Shown piece by piece: positions 2,205 to 10,373 of a DNA stretch of 64,000 bases. Every line of letters starts with the position of its first letter. Position 1 is the stretch's first letter. Location of the stretch: the sequence record OM632669.1. One strand, given 5' to 3'. Made by a program: the position numbers and the translations under genes. A model generated the notes under the pieces. The model was not told the origin of the DNA. It searched no databases and saw only the letters and a list, made by a program, of their open reading frames with translations. This DNA is from Escherichia phage BEU42.

Positions 2205-2561
2205 ATGGCTCAAGAAAAGAATCGTCGTCAGACACTTATCGAACGTATTCAGGCCAGAATCAAATTACAGGACTTAGGCTATACCGTTAATGGTCAGCCT
2301 AGCCTCTGTCACATCTGGACTGGTTCACATTCAGGTAATGGACGCGGTGGGCAATATGGCAGGATTTCCGTGAATGGAGTTACCTCTGCAACTCACATTA
2401 TTGCCTATACCCATTATCATGGTTATATCCCCAATAAGATGCAAGTAGACCATCTCTGTAATAATCGTCTGTGCTGTAACCCTGAACATCTTGAATTGGT
2501 TACTCACCAAGAGAACCAGAGAAGAAGGGCTAAGCGTTCTAAATCTAAAGGAAATAAATAA
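2205..2561 (+). CDS. HNH endonuclease (free-standing homing-endonuclease-like)
   Basis: HNH signature with zinc ligands: DHLCNNRLCCNPEHLELVTHQEN, plus upstream CHIWTGS...G. 118 aa. Start codon uncertain (no obvious RBS). Confidence 0.65.
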   Translation: MAQEKNRRQTLIERIQARIKLQDLGYTVNGQPSLCHIWTGSHSGNGRGGQYGRISVNGVTSATHIIAYTHYHGYIPNKMQVDHLCNNRLCCNPEHLELVTHQENQRRRAKRSKSKGNK

Positions 2562-2732
2562 ATGATTAAAAAACTTATTTGTAAACTTATTGCAGCAATC
2601 TTAATTAGTATTATTGGTATTGCATGGGTAATTTCTACTCCAGATAACGTTATGCAACAAATTTATTATGCTGTATATACATCAACCTCTTTTGTTTGGG
2701 TTTATGTAATGTACCGTATTTGTAGCGACTAA
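2562..2732 (+). CDS. possible small membrane protein (56 aa)
   Basis: Untracked short ORF ATG 2562 to TAA 2730-2732, single hydrophobic helix (LIAAILISIIGIAWVIS); fills the gap between the HNH gene and the ATPase gene. Confidence 0.3.
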   Translation: MIKKLICKLIAAILISIIGIAWVISTPDNVMQQIYYAVYTSTSFVWVYVMYRICSD

Positions 2733-2761
2733 TACTTAATATAGCTTAACTGGAGAGTAAA

Positions 2762-3820
2762 ATGGCTAGTATTGATTCTATTGCCGTATGTAATCCACGG
2801 CAGGTACGTAAATTTGTTGAACACTGTATCCGTTCAGGATTGGTTCCATTTATCACTTCATCTCCTGGTATGGGTAAATCTGCAATTGTTCATCAGATTG
2901 CAGAAGACTTTGGCCTGAAACTGATTGACCATCGTCTGTCTACTTCAGCACCAGAAGACCTGTCAGGTCTGCCTCGTTTTAAAGAAAATGGTCGTGCTGA
3001 ATTTGCTCCATTTGACGAGCTATTCCCACTGGAAGGGGATACTGTACCTGAAGGATTTAATGGCTGGCTTCTCTTTCTCGATGAGTTTAACTCTGCTCGT
3101 AAAGAGATTCAGGCTGCTGCTTATAAATTGGTACTCGACCGTATGACTGGTCAGAAGAAGCTACATCCTTATGTAGCTATCGTATGTGCTGGTAACAAAG
3201 CAACTGACCGTGCCATTACTAATAACCTGTCTACAGCTATGCAATCACGTCTTATTCATCTGGAAATGGAGACTGATTTTGATGTCTTTATGGAAGATGT
3301 AGCTATCCCTAACAAATGGGATGAGCGTGTAATTGCATTCCTGAATGCTAACCCAAATAAACTGAATGATTTTGAACCAGACCATCAAGAGAAGACTTTC
3401 TGTTGTTCTCGTACATGGGAGTTCGTTAACAAGATTGTTTCCATTCTCCCACCGGGACCGATTGATAGTGAAATGACTCTGCTATTAGCAGGCACTATCA
3501 CCTCTGGTGTAGCAACATCATTCGTCCAGTTTACTCAGGTCTATAGCAACATGGTGTCTTTGAATGAGATTTTGGATAATCCTAAGAAAGCTCGTATGCC
3601 TGAAGACAATAACCTGTTGTGGGCTGTAGTCACTTCACTGATTAACAATACTGACGAAGATAATCATTCGAAAATCTTTGATTACGTTGAACGTATGCCA
3701 TTTACGTTCAAGGTTTTGTACTACCGTTCCGTAGGTAGTCTGGTTCCAGCTTTGGTTAAATTACCGAACTGGCGTGTTGCTGCAATCACATTATCTAAAT
3801 ACGTTCATGGTTCCAATTAA
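2762..3820 (+). CDS. AAA+ ATPase, MoxR/AAA_5-like
   Basis: Walker A SSPGMGKSA and Walker B LLFLDEFNSA; GGAGAG RBS; 352 aa. Sits directly upstream of a vWA-domain gene (N4 gp24-like by synteny). Confidence 0.7.
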   Translation: MASIDSIAVCNPRQVRKFVEHCIRSGLVPFITSSPGMGKSAIVHQIAEDFGLKLIDHRLSTSAPEDLSGLPRFKENGRAEFAPFDELFPLEGDTVPEGFNGWLLFLDEFNSARKEIQAAAYKLVLDRMTGQKKLHPYVAIVCAGNKATDRAITNNLSTAMQSRLIHLEMETDFDVFMEDVAIPNKWDERVIAFLNANPNKLNDFEPDHQEKTFCCSRTWEFVNKIVSILPPGPIDSEMTLLLAGTITSGVATSFVQFTQVYSNMVSLNEILDNPKKARMPEDNNLLWAVVTSLINNTDEDNHSKIFDYVERMPFTFKVLYYRSVGSLVPALVKLPNWRVAAITLSKYVHGSN

Positions 3821-3986
3821 CAAGAAAGGAGTTACAGACCTCCTGTATGTTGCTGGCTTTAACGGTGAAAAAATTACCGTATATGCCCCAAGTCTGGCTG
3901 CTGCTAAACAAAAGGCAGTTGAATACTTTCGTCCAAAGAAACGTGTAGCCCATACCATTTGGGTTCATCTCGCAGAGGAAAACTGA
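3807..3986 (+). CDS. possible small protein (59 aa)
   Basis: In-frame ATG 3807 inside track ORF 3774..3986; overlaps ATPase stop by 14 nt; no clear RBS. Otherwise the 167-nt gap before the vWA gene is non-coding. Confidence 0.25.
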   Translation: MVPINKKGVTDLLYVAGFNGEKITVYAPSLAAAKQKAVEYFRPKKRVAHTIWVHLAEEN

Positions 3987-3987
3987 T

Positions 3988-5130
3988 ATGTCCATGACAG
4001 ATGCTCAATTAACCCGTGAATATGACAGATGTCAGGCTAAAGCCTTTATGGGCAAAACTGCTGCATTCTTTGGTTCACTGTTATGTTCTCTGAAGTTCCG
4101 TTGGGTAAAAGATGGCTGTGATACAGCACAAACCGATGGTGAGCATCTCGAATGGAATCCTGATTGGTTTGAGAGTCTATTACCTGAATCTCGTGTAACA
4201 GTACTCATGCATGAACTATGGCATGTCGGCTTACTGCATTCTGTTCGTATGGGTTCTCGTGACCCAGAAGTATGGAATTATGCCTGTGATATTTATATCA
4301 ACAATCAGCTTATTCAGGATGGCTACAGCTTTATAGGAATCGAAAATTGCTGGAAAGACTCTAAGTATGCTGGTTGGGCTGAAGAACAAATCTATGATGA
4401 CCTCATGAGCAAACAGATACGTCCTCCTAAAGCATCAGGTGCTTTTGGGGCTGGCTCAGGTGGTGACATGAAACCTTCCACTTCGAAGGCTAGTCAGGTA
4501 AATATTGTCAATAATGTAGTAAGAGCCATGCACCAACAGAAACTATCTGGTGGTTCTTTGCCTGGGGTATTACCTGGAAAAATGGAAGAAGTTATTACTC
4601 AATTCCTGAAACCAGTAGTACCGTGGCAGGTCTTACTTGAACGCTTCTTCAATGACCTGCAAGAAACTTACTACTCATGGCAACGGCCTAATCGTAGATA
4701 CCCTGATATGTACCTACCATCTCCTATGGATGATGACGGTAGACTGGAACATCTGGCTTATTTCCTCGATACATCTGGCTCCATTAAACCTAAAGATGCT
4801 TTACGCTTTAGCTCTGAAGTGGCCTATGTAAAAGAGAAATACCAGCCTCAGAAGATGACTCTAGTTCAGTTCACTACAGAGATTGTAGATGAACAAGTCA
4901 TTGAAGATGGTGATAAGTTTACTGATGTCACTATCAAAGGACGGGGTGGTACTAGTCTGGTTCCTGTACGTGAGTGGATTATTAAGCATAAGCCTACTGC
5001 TGCCATTATCTTTACTGACTTAGAAGTCAGACCGATGGAGCCATTGCCATTTGACATTCCTGTCATATGGGTAGTTATTCGTAACCCTGGTGCACAAGTT
5101 CCATTTGGGAAAGTTATTAACATTACATGA
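3988..5130 (+). CDS. vWA-domain protein with N-terminal HExxH putative metallopeptidase-like domain
   Basis: MIDAS-type motif DTSGS (AYFLDTSGSIKPKD) and upstream MHELWHVGLLH; GAGGAAA RBS; 380 aa. Partner of the preceding MoxR-like ATPase (N4 gp25-like by synteny). Confidence 0.65.
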   Translation: MSMTDAQLTREYDRCQAKAFMGKTAAFFGSLLCSLKFRWVKDGCDTAQTDGEHLEWNPDWFESLLPESRVTVLMHELWHVGLLHSVRMGSRDPEVWNYACDIYINNQLIQDGYSFIGIENCWKDSKYAGWAEEQIYDDLMSKQIRPPKASGAFGAGSGGDMKPSTSKASQVNIVNNVVRAMHQQKLSGGSLPGVLPGKMEEVITQFLKPVVPWQVLLERFFNDLQETYYSWQRPNRRYPDMYLPSPMDDDGRLEHLAYFLDTSGSIKPKDALRFSSEVAYVKEKYQPQKMTLVQFTTEIVDEQVIEDGDKFTDVTIKGRGGTSLVPVREWIIKHKPTAAIIFTDLEVRPMEPLPFDIPVIWVVIRNPGAQVPFGKVINIT

Positions 5131-5136
5131 GGTTTT

Positions 5137-5643
5137 ATGGTTGTTAATGGAAAACTATTGTTAGGTGCTATACCCATTAAGGGCATGGTTAACAGTAAAC
5201 TCAGTTCAGGTGAGACTACATTTGGACTGGGAGAAGCTGGTTATGACATCCGTATTAAACAGGATGTTACCTTCTACCGATTTCTTGGTTTGATTCCCTG
5301 CATCAAGATTAAGGATGAAGGAAAGACCAAGTGGAAGTTTGGCACTTTCACATTAGCTTCTGCAATGGAACGTTTCAATGTACCTGCTGGCCTAGTGGGT
5401 ATTGTCCATGACAAATCTACATGGGCAAGGCGTACATTATCTGTATTTAATACCGTTATTGAACCAGGATGGTCAGGCTATCTGACTTTAGAACTGGTTT
5501 ATCACGGTCGTAAAAAACTTCATATCCCTGCTGGTTCAGGTATTGCTCAGGTCATCTTCCATGAGACAGTAGAGAATACTACCTACAATGGACGATACCA
5601 GAACCAGCCTAATCAACCTGTAGCTGCTAAGTCAGCTCGTTAA
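5137..5643 (+). CDS. dCTP deaminase / dUTPase-superfamily protein
   Basis: Motifs GEAGYDIRI and VIEPGWSGYLTLELVYHG...GIAQVIF resemble the Dcd/dUTPase-fold signatures; 168 aa. Confidence 0.55.
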   Translation: MVVNGKLLLGAIPIKGMVNSKLSSGETTFGLGEAGYDIRIKQDVTFYRFLGLIPCIKIKDEGKTKWKFGTFTLASAMERFNVPAGLVGIVHDKSTWARRTLSVFNTVIEPGWSGYLTLELVYHGRKKLHIPAGSGIAQVIFHETVENTTYNGRYQNQPNQPVAAKSAR

Positions 5644-5656
5644 TTAAGGAAATATC

Positions 5657-5857
5657 ATGTCTATCTTTACTACTAAGGTTAATGGTCAGAAAGTTACTGT
5701 TGTTGCTCGTAACGTAGCTTACGTTACTGAAAACAGTGAAGGCCGTGGTGTAATTACTTTTACTAACGGTGATTCCATTGATACCCAGGTAGGTTATGAC
5801 TCTATCCGTCGTAACGTAGCTAAAGCACTTGATGGTGCTAAAGACATCGCAGAGTAA
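5657..5857 (+). CDS. hypothetical protein (66 aa)
   Basis: ORF with AAGGA RBS; followed by terminator hairpins. Confidence 0.45.
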   Translation: MSIFTTKVNGQKVTVVARNVAYVTENSEGRGVITFTNGDSIDTQVGYDSIRRNVAKALDGAKDIAE

Positions 5858-5932
5858 GGTGTTTACAGTAATGGGGCTATATAGTAGCCCCATTTATGGA
5901 AATTCCTTTCTCCATTGCTTAGTCCCAACTAT

Positions 5933-5956
5933 GCCCACTTTATGTGGGCTTTTTTA
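5933..5956 (+). terminator. Rho-independent terminator
   Basis: Hairpin gcccac-tttatg-tgggc followed by TTTTTT; a second hairpin (ggggctatatagtagcccc) lies at about 5872-5890. Confidence 0.55.
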
Positions 5957-5970
5957 ATTAGAGACTATGT

Positions 5971-6213
5971 ATGAGCAAACTAGGTATACACGTTTACATA
6001 GATGAAGCCGAGAAGATATACCCCTATACATTATTTAGTTCCAGTGATTTACTTCAGATGAAGGTAAACTCCATCATCGTAAACTACTGGTATAACGATA
6101 AGAATTGGGATTACTGGGCTGCACGACAGAAGAGTAAGAACAAGAAAGATATATTCAAAAGCAAATCAACTCCACATATGTTTCCTTGGTATCACAGAAA
6201 CCGGAGATATTGA
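5971..6213 (+). CDS. hypothetical protein (80 aa)
   Basis: ORF; stop overlaps the next start (TGATG). Confidence 0.4.
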   Translation: MSKLGIHVYIDEAEKIYPYTLFSSSDLLQMKVNSIIVNYWYNDKNWDYWAARQKSKNKKDIFKSKSTPHMFPWYHRNRRY

Positions 6214-6674
6214 TGACAAGAATACCATTTTTAAAACCTAGAAAACGAACACCAAAGCTGTATCAAAAGACCTCAGAAGACGGTTTAGCCTTGAACCAGA
6301 AAGCTATTAAGGCCGTTAGTACACTGGTTCAAGGTAAACAGGATGCTGTTGCTTTACGTCTTGTTGTTGAGCAAATCTTAGTTGCTCTGACACTGGCTCA
6401 AGTAGCTAAACAAGAAGGTAAACAAGAAACCTGTAAAACAGCATTAGGTGCTTTGTACTGGTTGTATAAAGACCTTGCTGACAACTTTGAAATGTCTATG
6501 GATAAGTGGCAGGGCATTTCTTGTGTACTTGCTCTTAGAGAAGGACAGGAATTACTGTCTACTCTACCAAAAGCAGAATTTAAACTAGCCTACACTGGAG
6601 CACATAAGATTGTTCTTGGTTCCAGTAAGGACATCTTTAACCACCTCAAGCTATTCAAGGCTTTCTATGATTAA
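6213..6674 (+). CDS. hypothetical protein (about 153 aa)
   Basis: Track ORF 6186 uses TTG; ATG 6213 has GGAG 6 nt upstream and is stop/start coupled to the previous gene. 3' end overlaps the thyX start by 8 nt. Confidence 0.45.
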   Translation: MTRIPFLKPRKRTPKLYQKTSEDGLALNQKAIKAVSTLVQGKQDAVALRLVVEQILVALTLAQVAKQEGKQETCKTALGALYWLYKDLADNFEMSMDKWQGISCVLALREGQELLSTLPKAEFKLAYTGAHKIVLGSSKDIFNHLKLFKAFYD

Positions 6675-7608
6675 TGCAAAAATCCTCGCTGATAGTATTA
6701 CTCTTTCTGGTGACCGTCTGGTAACAATGGAGCTGGTTTATCCGCGTTTTATTCATTCAGAATTTATGACTCACCGAGCACTTAATCGTAATGCTTCCAG
6801 TAGTCGTGCTATTCCTACCCAACGCCTTATTGAGCAAGTTCGTAATGAACCAGTAATGCCAGTACATTGGGGTAAGAACCAGAAAGGAATGCAGGCAAGT
6901 GAAGAACTCACTCCTATGGAGATTAAGGATGCTGAGTTCATTTGGGAAAATGCTGCCTCTGCTGCTGCTGTGTATGCTGAACAACTTCGTCGTGGACAAG
7001 TACATAAGCAGATTGTTAATCGTATTCTGGAACCATTCACGCATATCCGTGTAGTAGTGACAGCTACTCAATGGAATAACTTCTTTGGTTTACGTATCCA
7101 TCCCGATGCTCAACCAGAGATTTGTGAATTGGCTACTAAGATGAAGGAACAGTATGACCAATCAAAACCCCGTACCTTGTTGGCTGGGGAATGGCATTTG
7201 CCGTACATTACTAATAGTGATTACCTCGATGCTTACGATTATTGCAAACATCAACGAATTACTCGTGATGAACCAAGTAGTGATGAAATTAATTGCCTGT
7301 TAGTAAAAATCTCTGCTGCTCGTTGTGCCCGTGCTTCTTATAACAACTTTAAAGGCACTCCTTCTACTATCGAAGAAGACCTGCGTTTGTTCTCTAAATT
7401 GGTTGAAAGTAAGCCTGTTCACGCAAGTCCTACTGAACATCAAGCAACTCCTCAGCATGTAATGAGTAAAGGCTTAAATGAGCCTACTGACCCATCTACA
7501 TGGGAAAATGGCATTAGCCACATGGACAGAAATTTACGTTTATACTCAGGTAATCTGTGTGGCTGGATTCAATTCCGTAAGCTGCTTGCAGATGAATGCA
7601 TCCACTAA
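6667..7608 (+). CDS. thyX: flavin-dependent thymidylate synthase (ThyX-like)
   Basis: ThyX-like signature HR-x7-S-x-R in MTHRALNRNASSSRAIP. ATG 6667 is in frame with track ORF 6610..7608 and gives a 313-aa product. Confidence 0.55.
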   Translation: MINAKILADSITLSGDRLVTMELVYPRFIHSEFMTHRALNRNASSSRAIPTQRLIEQVRNEPVMPVHWGKNQKGMQASEELTPMEIKDAEFIWENAASAAAVYAEQLRRGQVHKQIVNRILEPFTHIRVVVTATQWNNFFGLRIHPDAQPEICELATKMKEQYDQSKPRTLLAGEWHLPYITNSDYLDAYDYCKHQRITRDEPSSDEINCLLVKISAARCARASYNNFKGTPSTIEEDLRLFSKLVESKPVHASPTEHQATPQHVMSKGLNEPTDPSTWENGISHMDRNLRLYSGNLCGWIQFRKLLADECIH

Positions 7609-7654
7609 GTAGGTCTTTTGTGGGTGTAGACCACTCATAATAAACTCCGCTATT

Positions 7655-7681
7655 TGCCTCCTACATGGAGGCAATTTTTTT
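7655..7681 (+). terminator. Rho-independent terminator
   Basis: Hairpin tgcctcc-tacat-ggaggca followed by TTTTTTT. Confidence 0.65.
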
Positions 7682-7705
7682 GATTCCATGTACATAGGAG
7701 GCCAT

Positions 7706-8282: not shown

Positions 8283-10373
8283 GTGAAACGAAATTATCTC
8301 GCCATTATTGCCCTGTCAGTAGACAGTCGTAACCTCACCTTATGGCAACCAGATGGTTCTACTATGGTCATCCCCCAAGGGGATGCCCGTGTACCACGTA
8401 TTGTTGCTGAAGCAAAAGAAAAGAATCTTACCCCAGGTAAGATTATCGAAGTGGATGTCACTATCGAAGCTCAGATTCGTCAGGAGTTTCTGGACGCTGA
8501 ACGTGATACAGGTGGCTTTGTTAAATTCTTCCGTATTACTAAGAAGAGGCTACAAGAGTTCTTCTTAGGGGAAGAGGAAGAACAAGTCCCTTATGTATCA
8601 CCTGTAGAGTTAGGTGCTAAACCCACTGCTTTCAATGCTTTTATTGCTAATGCTGTAGGCAAAACTCTTGCTGTACAACATGCATCATTAAAAGCACCTG
8701 AACCAGAAATGACAGTTACTCATGAGCGTTTTTACGGTAACTATGCTGTATGGATTACAGATGTAGACCCACGGAATCATCGTATTGAGGTTATTCATGT
8801 TATCCGTGAAATCTCAGGAAGAACCAGTGAATATGTCAATAACCTGCTGGCTCAACCAACCCCATTCAAAGTATTTGATTGGCTCACAGAGACGCAGGCT
8901 AAAGAGTTTGTAAGACGTCTGAATAACACTCAGGGTGTTATCTCTGTCTATAACAAACTGGAAGACGGTATTCCTGCTAAGGTTGCTGTAAAGGCCACAA
9001 AGCCAACCAATAAGGAAAAGCTGGAAGCTGCATCAACTAAGCTGAAAGCTATGGGTGCTGTCGCTACTGATGCTTATGAGTTTCATACTGACTTGAATGA
9101 GAATGAAGAGACTATTGTAGCTGTAGTGAATGATAAGGTGGTTCCTGATGTTCAGAACCTACACCGCCACATCCGTCAATCTGCAAACCTGAAAGACTAT
9201 AAAGGCTTTACTAAGTTCCTTGAACGTCTGTCTACTGTAATTGATAAACGTCGTCACTCTGTTGAAGACCTGATGAAGTTTATGGAAAAAGGTGACCTGC
9301 CAATTGCAGATGATGGCTCCATTGTTATCTTCAAACGTCTGGAAAGCAAAGACAATCCTGAACATCTCAAAGACGTAATGGATGATGTATTTGTTGATTG
9401 CCATTCTAGGAAGATTGAGCAATGCGTTGGTATGCGTGTAATGGTTAAAGAAAACCTTGTAGACCAGAACCGTCGTAAAGACTGTTCTCATGGTTTGCAC
9501 GTAGCTTCTCTGCAATACATTCGTAATTTCTCAGGCAACGTAACCATTATTGGTAAAGTTGCTCCAGAGGATGTATTTGCAGTACCAGAATACGATGTTA
9601 CTAAGATGCGTGTATCTGCTTATCACATCATTACCAAGCTACCTGATGCTATTCGTGACCATGTTAATAATGGCAATCCAATCTCCACCATTGAGGGTGG
9701 TACGGAAATCCTGAACATGGTTCTCAGTGGTAATCACCCTGAACCTTCCCGTCAGGTACTGGTTGGTGGTCATTATGGAACCAATCTGACTTATTCAGAA
9801 CTCACCCGTAATTATCTGGATGATGAGGAAGACATCGTTATTCCAGATGAACCAGTAATTAAGAAAACTGCCTTGAATATGGAAGAGAGCTTTACGGCAA
9901 CTAATCCTAAAGCTGAACCAGTGAAGGCAACGGATGTTAAACCTATTAAGAAGACTAAGATGGAAATTCTTAAAGACCTTTGGAACCAGTTCCTGAAAGC
10001 AGAGACTTCTAATGAAGCTATTACACTGGCTGATGAAATCATTGCTGCTAAGGGCAAATGTAAGAAGTCATGGGCTTCTTTAGGCTTCAGTGGTGACATG
10101 GTTCAGAAACTGATTGATGCTCGTGCTAATAAACCTAAGCCAGAAAAAGTAGTCAAACAGGATAAAACTGTTGCACCTAAGAAAACTACAATCACTCGTA
10201 GTCGGAATGCTGATGTTATTCGTAGCTATCTGAATGACAAAGGTATGTCTGATTACTGTAAAGCTCATGCCATTCACGATGTGAAACGTGCTGCTAAGAA
10301 ATCTTATGCTGCACTGGGTCTGACTCCTGAAGAATGCAGCCAAATTGATAAACTGAAGCATCATTTGAAGTAA
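8283..10373 (+). CDS. large hypothetical protein (696 aa), GTG start
   Basis: Long ORF with GGAG 6 nt upstream of GTG 8283. Lys-rich C-terminal third. No GHKL or other motif recognised; an rIIA-like role is only a synteny guess. Confidence 0.5.
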   Translation: MKRNYLAIIALSVDSRNLTLWQPDGSTMVIPQGDARVPRIVAEAKEKNLTPGKIIEVDVTIEAQIRQEFLDAERDTGGFVKFFRITKKRLQEFFLGEEEEQVPYVSPVELGAKPTAFNAFIANAVGKTLAVQHASLKAPEPEMTVTHERFYGNYAVWITDVDPRNHRIEVIHVIREISGRTSEYVNNLLAQPTPFKVFDWLTETQAKEFVRRLNNTQGVISVYNKLEDGIPAKVAVKATKPTNKEKLEAASTKLKAMGAVATDAYEFHTDLNENEETIVAVVNDKVVPDVQNLHRHIRQSANLKDYKGFTKFLERLSTVIDKRRHSVEDLMKFMEKGDLPIADDGSIVIFKRLESKDNPEHLKDVMDDVFVDCHSRKIEQCVGMRVMVKENLVDQNRRKDCSHGLHVASLQYIRNFSGNVTIIGKVAPEDVFAVPEYDVTKMRVSAYHIITKLPDAIRDHVNNGNPISTIEGGTEILNMVLSGNHPEPSRQVLVGGHYGTNLTYSELTRNYLDDEEDIVIPDEPVIKKTALNMEESFTATNPKAEPVKATDVKPIKKTKMEILKDLWNQFLKAETSNEAITLADEIIAAKGKCKKSWASLGFSGDMVQKLIDARANKPKPEKVVKQDKTVAPKKTTITRSRNADVIRSYLNDKGMSDYCKAHAIHDVKRAAKKSYAALGLTPEECSQIDKLKHHLK

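Follow-up and report, generated by a model that had tools for sequence, protein, structure and literature searches.

Gene pair and proposed function

What do two neighboring genes of Escherichia phage BEU42 (sequence record OM632669.1), one encoding an ATPase and the other a protein that combines an HExxH motif with a von Willebrand factor A (VWA) domain, contribute to the phage? The pair lies at positions 2762 to 5130 of the window, i.e., the whole stretch of 64,000 nt analyzed here, which by sequence comparison is an N4-type schitovirus genome. Specifically, the region 2500-5700 was 100% identical to Escherichia phages BEU5/13/14/44/51, 98.6-98.8% identical to PMBT57, Jura, AlfredRasser and others, and 97.9% identical to the N4 reference (megablast), with 2762-3820 corresponding to N4 gp24 and 3988-5130 to N4 gp25. 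An earlier reading of the sequence alone (the sequence-only reading) had proposed that a MoxR-type ATPase is paired here with a VWA/HExxH protein, and the structural placement of gp24, the fold of gp25 and the genetic pairing of the two genes in phages and plasmids all bear this out.

We estimate a probability of roughly 60% that gp24 and gp25 constitute one MoxR-type AAA+/VWA unit whose VWA partner carries a zincin-like HExxH domain of its own, and that this unit is ATP-driven and probably proteolytic. That the two proteins act as a functional couple is very likely; that gp25 is an active peptidase appears somewhat probable from its residues. The strict conservation of the ATPase site, the zinc-peptidase motif and the MIDAS, or metal ion-dependent adhesion site, of the VWA domain points to a working enzyme machine. 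gp24 and gp25 are two of the ~14 genes common to all N4-like phages (Schitoviridae); if the substrate were identified, a step that all schitovirus infections share would be explained, and the pair might reveal a new way to couple a MoxR motor to proteolysis.

The ATPase gp24

Both open reading frames (ORFs), of 352 and 380 aa on the (+) strand, are exactly where the sequence-only reading had drawn them. The first contains the following features:

2762-3820, (+) strand: N4 gp24 homologue, 352 aa, AAA+ ATPase of the MoxR/dynein/midasin clade according to ORF listing, motifs and model
2858-2881, (+) strand: Walker A motif (P-loop) SSPGMGKS, residues 33-40, by translation
3071-3088, (+) strand: Walker B motif LFLDEF, with D107 and E108, by translation
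3194-3196, (+) strand: sensor-1 residue N145, downstream of Walker B
3209-3211, (+) strand: candidate Arg finger R150, by conservation

gp24 consists of an AAA+ core of ~190 aa followed by a conserved helical C-terminal region of ~150 aa. The Walker A and Walker B motifs, on which its identification as an ATPase had been based, both appear in the translation and are invariant in an alignment of 31 homologues (52-79% identity). Specifically, S34, P35, G38, K39, S40, D107, E108, N145 and the S162-R163 pair were invariant, R150 was kept in at least 90% of the sequences, and the stretch DHRLSTSAPEDLSGLP (residues 56-71) was near-invariant.

The AlphaFold2 model of gp24 has an AAA+ fold, and the structure search returned dynein, midasin, CbbQ and NorQ as its best matches, which places gp24 in the MoxR clade. 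Two strand pairs of the model (70-82 and 132-145) occupy the positions of the helix-2 insert and the pre-sensor-1 insert of the dynein/midasin/MoxR clade and, on the strength of this model, we assign gp24 to the MoxR/dynein/midasin (helix-2-insert) group. With sequence models, gp24 stayed under the curated Pfam cut-offs for AAA_5 (19.3 vs 22 bits) and AAA (19.6 vs 21.2 bits), and it had no NCBIfam match and hence no membership in a curated MoxR model, while some of its homologues do clear the PF00004 or PF07728 cut-offs. Searches of gp24 and gp25 against PDB sequences with phmmer returned noise only.

The gp24-type gene is cut in two by an inserted HNH homing-endonuclease gene in several schitoviruses, namely Escherichia phage vB_EcoP_PW8 (555-2475 of the locus) and phages U1G and ZC03, and such invasion fits a highly conserved target gene. 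At 280-1380 of the Erwinia phage Gutmeister locus, a second, classical AAA ATPase (PF00004, 2.2e-14), annotated as a '26S proteasome regulatory subunit', lies directly 5' of the gp24 homologue.

The VWA/HExxH protein gp25

The second gene carries the residues of two putative metal sites:

3988-5130, (+) strand: N4 gp25 homologue, 380 aa, Pfam DUF2201_N + DUF2201
4210-4224, (+) strand: HELWH with H75, E76 and H79, putative zinc site and catalytic glutamate, by translation
4237-4239, (+) strand: H84, candidate further zinc ligand, by conservation
4288-4290, (+) strand: D101, candidate further zinc ligand, by conservation
4768-4782, (+) strand: MIDAS motif DTSGS with D261, S263 and S265, by translation
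4951-4953, (+) strand: T322, completing the MIDAS, by conservation
5017-5019, (+) strand: D344, completing the MIDAS, by conservation

An HExxH and a DTSGS motif thus stand in one protein, as had been claimed. The N-terminal half (residues 10-245) matched DUF2201_N, a "putative metallopeptidase domain" (2.6e-86, 290 bits; cut-off 23.2), and the C-terminal part (residues 256-380) matched DUF2201, a "VWA-like domain" (1.4e-46, 158 bits; cut-off 26.4). Of the domain families foreseen by the sequence-only reading, the DUF2201 type was therefore recovered in gp25, but AAA_5 fell just short of its cut-off in gp24.

The AlphaFold2 model of gp25 (predicted local distance difference test score [pLDDT], 78.9; predicted template modeling score [pTM], 0.54) falls into three parts. 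The first is a well-predicted N-terminal helical/beta domain (~residues 1-150), in which strands 36-39, 47-49 and 53-56 precede the helix (66-81) that contains HELWH. The second is a low-confidence linker (~190-250) with a conserved WxRPNRRY..YLP motif, in which W213, W231, P234, R237, Y242, L243 and P244 are invariant despite the poor prediction. The third is a compact C-terminal alpha/beta domain (residues 256-380), which has a VWA fold in the structure search; the VWA domain expected from the DTSGS motif is accordingly present in the model as a Rossmann-like alpha/beta fold.

Conservation of the motif residues was high at both evolutionary depths. Among 32 close homologues (51-85% identity), H75, E76, H79, H84, D101, D261, S263, G264, S265, T322 and D344 were all invariant. 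In a distant set (34-51% identity), made up of the best 150 representatives of the clusters that an exhaustive HMMER search returned, the HExxH residues, whose conservation the sequence-only reading had proposed to check, were retained nearly as strictly (H75 in 145/148, E76 in 140/148 and H79 in 144/148), as were H84 (140/148, plus 7 Asp) and D101 (148/149), and the five MIDAS residues were each found in 149-151 of ~151 sequences (99-100%). Judged from these alignments, the motifs of gp24 and gp25 are under strong purifying selection, and we dismiss chance occurrence.

The N-terminal domain is likely, but not proven, to be zincin-like, because neither structure search matched it to any peptidase and its profile matches were weak. 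Specifically, a 24-sequence profile of residues 1-150 gave weak PDB matches, centered on the helix with HExxH, to the M48 proteins HtpX and BepA and to MJ1213, a mini-zincin (E-values of 0.3-1.3), and a profile of the same region gave weak Pfam matches to PhageMetallopep, SprT-like, Peptidase_M91, Peptidase_M48, eCIS_core and DUF5700 (best E-values of 0.002-0.1). gp25, like gp24, had no NCBIfam match, and the PADLOC anti-phage defense models matched neither of them nor the 59-aa protein encoded between them (see below); the proteins therefore have neither a curated name nor a tie to any catalogued defense system.

Distribution and linkage of the pair

The gp25 family is large, with 14,141 clusters at 50% identity for E-values of at most 1e-3 and 1,334 for at most 1e-30. 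Among 50,697 phage records, 684 contained a gp25 relative and 840 a gp24 relative, the carriers including all schitovirus groups and jumbo phages (RaK2, 121Q-like and PA5oct-like). All schitoviruses inspected have genes of the two types side by side or nearly so, as do RaK2, cyanophage S-TIM5 and plasmids. In RaK2, the adjacent genes are already annotated as "similar to N4 Gp24/Gp25"; in S-TIM5, they overlap by 4 nt and adjoin an Hsp20 gene, and the ATPase aligned with gp24 by hhalign (3.7e-39). The rV5-like phages have both genes ~4 kb apart, with the gp24-like 'MoxR ATPase' of rV5 on the strand opposite to the gp25-like gene; the rV5 'anti-sigma factor' gene upstream of the latter is not a gp24 homologue.

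A pattern scan of genome contigs gave 6 loci only, the derived peptide patterns being specific to the N4-like clade, and the bacterial context was taken from tblastn searches of plasmids instead. These detected gp25 relatives on 75 and gp24 relatives on 123 plasmid records. On these conjugative or large plasmids, the gp24/gp25 counts were equal in seven genera: Burkholderia (27/27), Paraburkholderia (9/9), Cupriavidus (8/8), Synechocystis (5/5), Caballeronia (4/4), Variovorax (4/4) and Ralstonia (3/3). The plasmid ATPases aligned with gp24 over ~300 residues, including its C-terminal region, at 25-29% identity (E-values of 4e-28 and 4e-32). On conjugative plasmids of Burkholderiaceae, the order is ATPase, a ~300-aa protein and the VWA-like gene. 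The middle protein (Burkholderia, Cupriavidus and Rhodovastum) is conserved in size and has no significant Pfam match, with a weak, sub-threshold hit to DUF3150 (E-value of 0.0015). The module of a B. gladioli plasmid additionally includes a DNA polymerase III beta-clamp-like gene (PF02767, 1.9e-09), and in two inspected Burkholderia plasmids the module lies directly upstream of VirB-type type IV secretion system (T4SS) genes. On a Rhodovastum plasmid, it sits beside a DUF3991/toprim protein, with ParB ~3 kb downstream, and on a Sphaerotilus plasmid the MoxR and VWA-like genes overlap within an island that also contains Sir2 and DUF262 genes. As far as such comparisons can tell, the joint inheritance of the two genes in unrelated mobile elements is the strongest computational argument for gp24 and gp25 working together.

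Three further records deserve mention. A 727-kb contig of Mesorhizobium yinganensis (contig2, 4854-7691) encodes an AAA ATPase, a DUF2201 protein (46% identity to gp25) and a dCTP deaminase in the N4-like order, which could reflect an integrated N4-like element or an artefact of assembly or binning. A 297-kb contig of Roseococcus sp. encodes a gp25 relative at 50% identity. The Acinetobacter baumannii 'plasmid' pRBH2-3, at 75,126 bp about the size of a schitovirus genome, encodes the pair at 36.6% (gp24) and 28% (gp25) identity together with a phage-type DNA-directed RNA polymerase and a toprim protein, and probably represents the genome of an N4-like phage or a phage-plasmid.

A small third gene between gp24 and gp25

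The possible 59-aa ORF that the sequence-only reading had noted between the two genes turned out to be a real gene:

3807-3986, (+) strand: conserved small protein of 59 aa, phrog_19202 (1.5e-33), supported by homologues

With its ATG at 3807, the ORF shares 14 nt with the end of gp24, and its stop ends 1 nt before the ATG of gp25, which has its own GAGGA Shine-Dalgarno sequence. The ORF is annotated in AlfredRasser (bas69_0056) and not in the N4 reference record, where it falls in an unannotated gap. Using tblastn, we found homologues (42-56% identity) in schitoviruses of Achromobacter (Dongdastvirus), Pseudomonas putida (Zurivirus), Erwinia (Yonginvirus) and Burkholderia, and in each case inspected the homologue lies between the genes for the ATPase and the VWA protein; the Burkholderia phage protein, ORF36, aligned with the 59-aa protein at an hhalign probability of 98.3%. 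In the alignment, 18 positions are invariant across four genera, and four of the five sequences end in V-x-L-A-E-E/G. The gene is absent from Gamaleyavirus and Johnsonvirus, where the gp24- and gp25-type genes abut. Since its homologues are conserved and co-located and it is absent from these two groups, these comparisons identify the ORF as a real, lineage-restricted third gene of the module, in the same place in five schitovirus lineages. Other proteins in the middle slot are not homologous to it, namely LIT1 ORF34 (172 aa; hhalign probability, 2%) and the ~300-aa plasmid proteins (0.4%).

In N4 and the four other lineages, the likeliest role of the 59-aa protein is that of an accessory adaptor, a regulator or a substrate. 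That its acidic C-terminus might serve as a MIDAS ligand is speculation.

Proposed mechanism and comparison with known systems

If the pair works like NorQ/NorD and other MoxR-VWA couples, gp24 would assemble as a hexameric ring and act as the motor, and gp25 could dock on this ring through its VWA domain or its conserved linker. The Mg2+-loaded MIDAS of gp25 would then be the recognition module, gripping an acidic residue of the target protein, which may be of host or phage origin. ATP hydrolysis would remodel either the target or the gp25 linker, whose conservation makes it the candidate remodeled element, and the HExxH domain would be the effector that cleaves the target or acts on it otherwise. 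A peptidase would be the simplest role because conservation of the HExxH glutamate matches that of the metal-binding histidines. For NorQ/NorD, cryo-electron microscopy and mutagenesis revealed that one VWA domain plugs the pore of the MoxR hexamer with a finger, that the MIDAS binds surface carboxylates of the target and that ATP hydrolysis remodels a linker in the VWA protein (PMC9976466; PMC13036017); the concept of MoxR and VWA proteins as chaperone and co-chaperone is reviewed in PMC7159879. Both gp24 and gp25 were reported as N4 middle-gene transcripts (PMC4193335) and sit in the middle-gene block amid nucleotide-metabolism and replication genes, which argues for action in the cytoplasm of the infected cell during replication and not in the virion.

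A bolder version, which we consider doubtful, is that the module represents a new type of ATP-dependent protease, composed of a MoxR ring and a VWA-zincin subunit, in which the MIDAS selects the substrate. Virulent schitoviruses, jumbo phages and conjugative plasmids would use it early after entry for the destruction or remodeling of a conserved host protein, e.g., a defense or DNA-associated factor, and the variable gene in the middle slot would be a lineage-specific adaptor or decoy.

The pair resembles the bacterial MoxR AAA+/VWA couples NorQ/NorD, CbbQ/CbbO, RavA/ViaA and CoxD/CoxE, to which sequence similarity was undetectable in the phmmer comparison with the PDB. It differs from NorQ/NorD-type couples in that the N-terminal domain of gp25 is of the putative zincin-like HExxH type instead of the NorD or ViaA type, the VWA domain is unusually compact (~125 aa), gp24 has the additional conserved helical region of ~150 aa, and the genes reside on phages and plasmids and have no metalloenzyme target associated with them. 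In comparison, gp25 shows no difference from the DUF2201_N (PF13203) + DUF2201 (PF09967) architecture, of which it is a full-length, high-scoring member; proteins of this kind are also labeled 'predicted metal-dependent peptidase' or 'VWA-like domain-containing protein', and we found no characterized member of the family in the literature. The putative coupling of an AAA+ unfoldase to an HExxH zinc peptidase is analogous to FtsH and to Wss1/Spartan with Cdc48/p97. However, the AAA+ domains of FtsH and Cdc48/p97 belong to the classical clade, neither system has a VWA/MIDAS adaptor, and FtsH is a single membrane-anchored polypeptide in which the AAA+ domain is fused to an M41 HExxH peptidase.

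The module is a rediscovery of annotated and published core genes and in that sense already known. Table 3 of PMC4193335 lists the two genes among the N4-like core genes as "unknown" (gp24) and "vWFA domain" (gp25), table 2 of PMC7650795 lists them as "AAA+ ATPase" and "gp25", and individual phage records already read "MoxR ATPase", "putative metallopeptidase domain protein" or "VWA-like domain-containing protein". In agreement with the sequence-only reading, which called the role of such pairs in phages largely unknown, our literature search found no functional study of N4 gp24/gp25, of their families or of MoxR in Schitoviridae, and the CRISPRi-ART paper mentions N4 only for rII. The present analysis adds quantitative proof that both active sites are conserved family-wide, the structural placement of gp24 in the MoxR/dynein/midasin group, the recognition of the 59-aa ORF as a conserved, co-located third gene, and the link of the pair to conjugative plasmids.

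Alternative explanations

Two alternatives to a MoxR-type, probably proteolytic unit are improbable to a similar degree. In the first, gp24 and gp25 serve as a chaperone for the insertion of a cofactor or metal, as NorQ/NorD, CobS/CobT or BchI/BchD do; they would open a target enzyme for metal loading, while the HExxH domain binds or delivers the metal and cleaves no peptide. The characterized MoxR-VWA couples named in PMC9976466 and PMC13036017 are indeed remodelers or metal inserters, none of them proteases; gp24 weakly matches phrog_249 ('porphyrin biosynthesis', CobS-like; 9.8e-07), and neighboring phage genes often encode metal- or flavin-dependent nucleotide enzymes (a ThyX-like ORF at 6610-7608 in the window and, in RaK2 and S-TIM5, a thymidylate synthase gene close to the pair). 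However, retention of the glutamate to the same extent as the histidines is expected for catalysis and not for mere metal binding, and no single metalloenzyme accompanies the pair across N4-like phages, jumbo phages and plasmids.

The second, a specific version of the proteolytic explanation we prefer, holds that the pair is a replication- or DNA-associated protease, like Wss1/Spartan with Cdc48/p97, that frees incoming or replicating DNA of bound or cross-linked proteins, or removes host DNA-binding defense proteins. Such a role would explain why virulent phages and conjugative plasmids share the pair. The phage genes sit amid replication and nucleotide genes, and the plasmid genes adjoin toprim/primase-like, ParB, beta-clamp-like and T4SS genes, but neighborhood is weak evidence in compact phage genomes. 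Similarly, the N-terminal domain of gp25 weakly matches SprT-like and PhageMetallopep, yet the SprT-like matches are marginal (2 of 24 sequences, best E-value of 0.0042). VWA domains occur in the DNA-repair factors Ku80 and TFIIH p44/p34, both among the fold matches of gp25, whereas searches with Pfam, PHROG and NCBIfam revealed no DNA-binding domain in gp24, gp25 or the 59-aa protein.

Still less probable is a virion-assembly chaperone, as proposed for p618 (MoxR) and p892 (VWA) of Acidianus two-tailed virus, that would, for example, fold or package the giant virion RNA polymerase (vRNAP). The archaeal virus partner p892 is not known to have a peptidase-like domain, and the proposed role of p618/p892 is in extracellular tail development. 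This virus-encoded MoxR ATPase and VWA co-chaperone are a precedent for the phage pair, as cited in PMC7159879 from Scheele et al. 2011, and both gp24 and gp25 belong to the small core common to all N4-like phages alongside vRNAP (PMC4193335; PMC7650795). Against a virion chaperone, conjugative plasmids and phages that lack an N4-type vRNAP also have the pair, its genes lie in the middle (replication) block and not in the late structural block, and the conserved HExxH glutamate would be left without a role.

Finally, we regard it as extremely improbable that gp25 is an HNH endonuclease, as stated by database labels only (N4 RefSeq, PHROG 1314 and the annotations derived from them in many phage records), because Pfam detected no HNH/His-Me finger domain, the whole protein is accounted for by DUF2201_N and DUF2201 with a VWA fold in the C-terminal half, and the genuine HNH gene of the region is a separate ORF at 2205-2561. 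The label, which is widespread in the gp25 family, looks like a propagated mis-annotation and should be corrected. The GenBank notes of the N4 record describe gp24, labeled "ATPase", as "similar to S. coel. protein 1" and gp25 as "similar to S. coel. protein 2".

Genomic context

The genes surrounding the pair in the window are as follows:

492-806: P22 gp17-like superinfection-exclusion protein, upstream of the block (PF17420, 2.4e-56)
1080-1916: SPFH/Band 7 protein, N4 gp20, a lipoprotein in N4 RefSeq, upstream of the block (PF01145, 1.7e-23)
1923-1945 and 5933-5949: strong terminator-like hairpins with T-runs, enclosing the gp21-gp27 block
2205-2561: free-standing HNH endonuclease, just 5' of gp24 (HNH_3, 8.6e-20)
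5137-5643: dCTP deaminase, downstream neighbor of gp25
6610-7608: ThyX-like ORF, N4 gp30 (Pfam Thy1/ThyX, flavin-dependent thymidylate synthase, 1.8e-10)
8283-10373: rII-like ORF of 696 aa at the N4 gp33 position (phrog_2886, 3.5e-201)

N4 gp30 has no name in either N4 record, and its PW8 homologue is annotated as FAD-dependent thymidylate synthase. The naming of 8283-10373 is inconsistent, with PHROGs giving 'RIIB lysis inhibitor' and N4 RefSeq giving 'RIIA lysis inhibitor' for gp33.

A scan for sigma-70 promoters was uninformative (8 sites vs 11.4 expected), as anticipated because N4 middle genes are transcribed by phage RNA polymerase II. Seven terminator-like sites were found vs 2.6 expected from shuffles. 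The GC skew flips sign at ~26000 and ~60000 of the window, consistent with the way in which N4-type genomes switch between early/middle genes that run rightward and late genes that run leftward.

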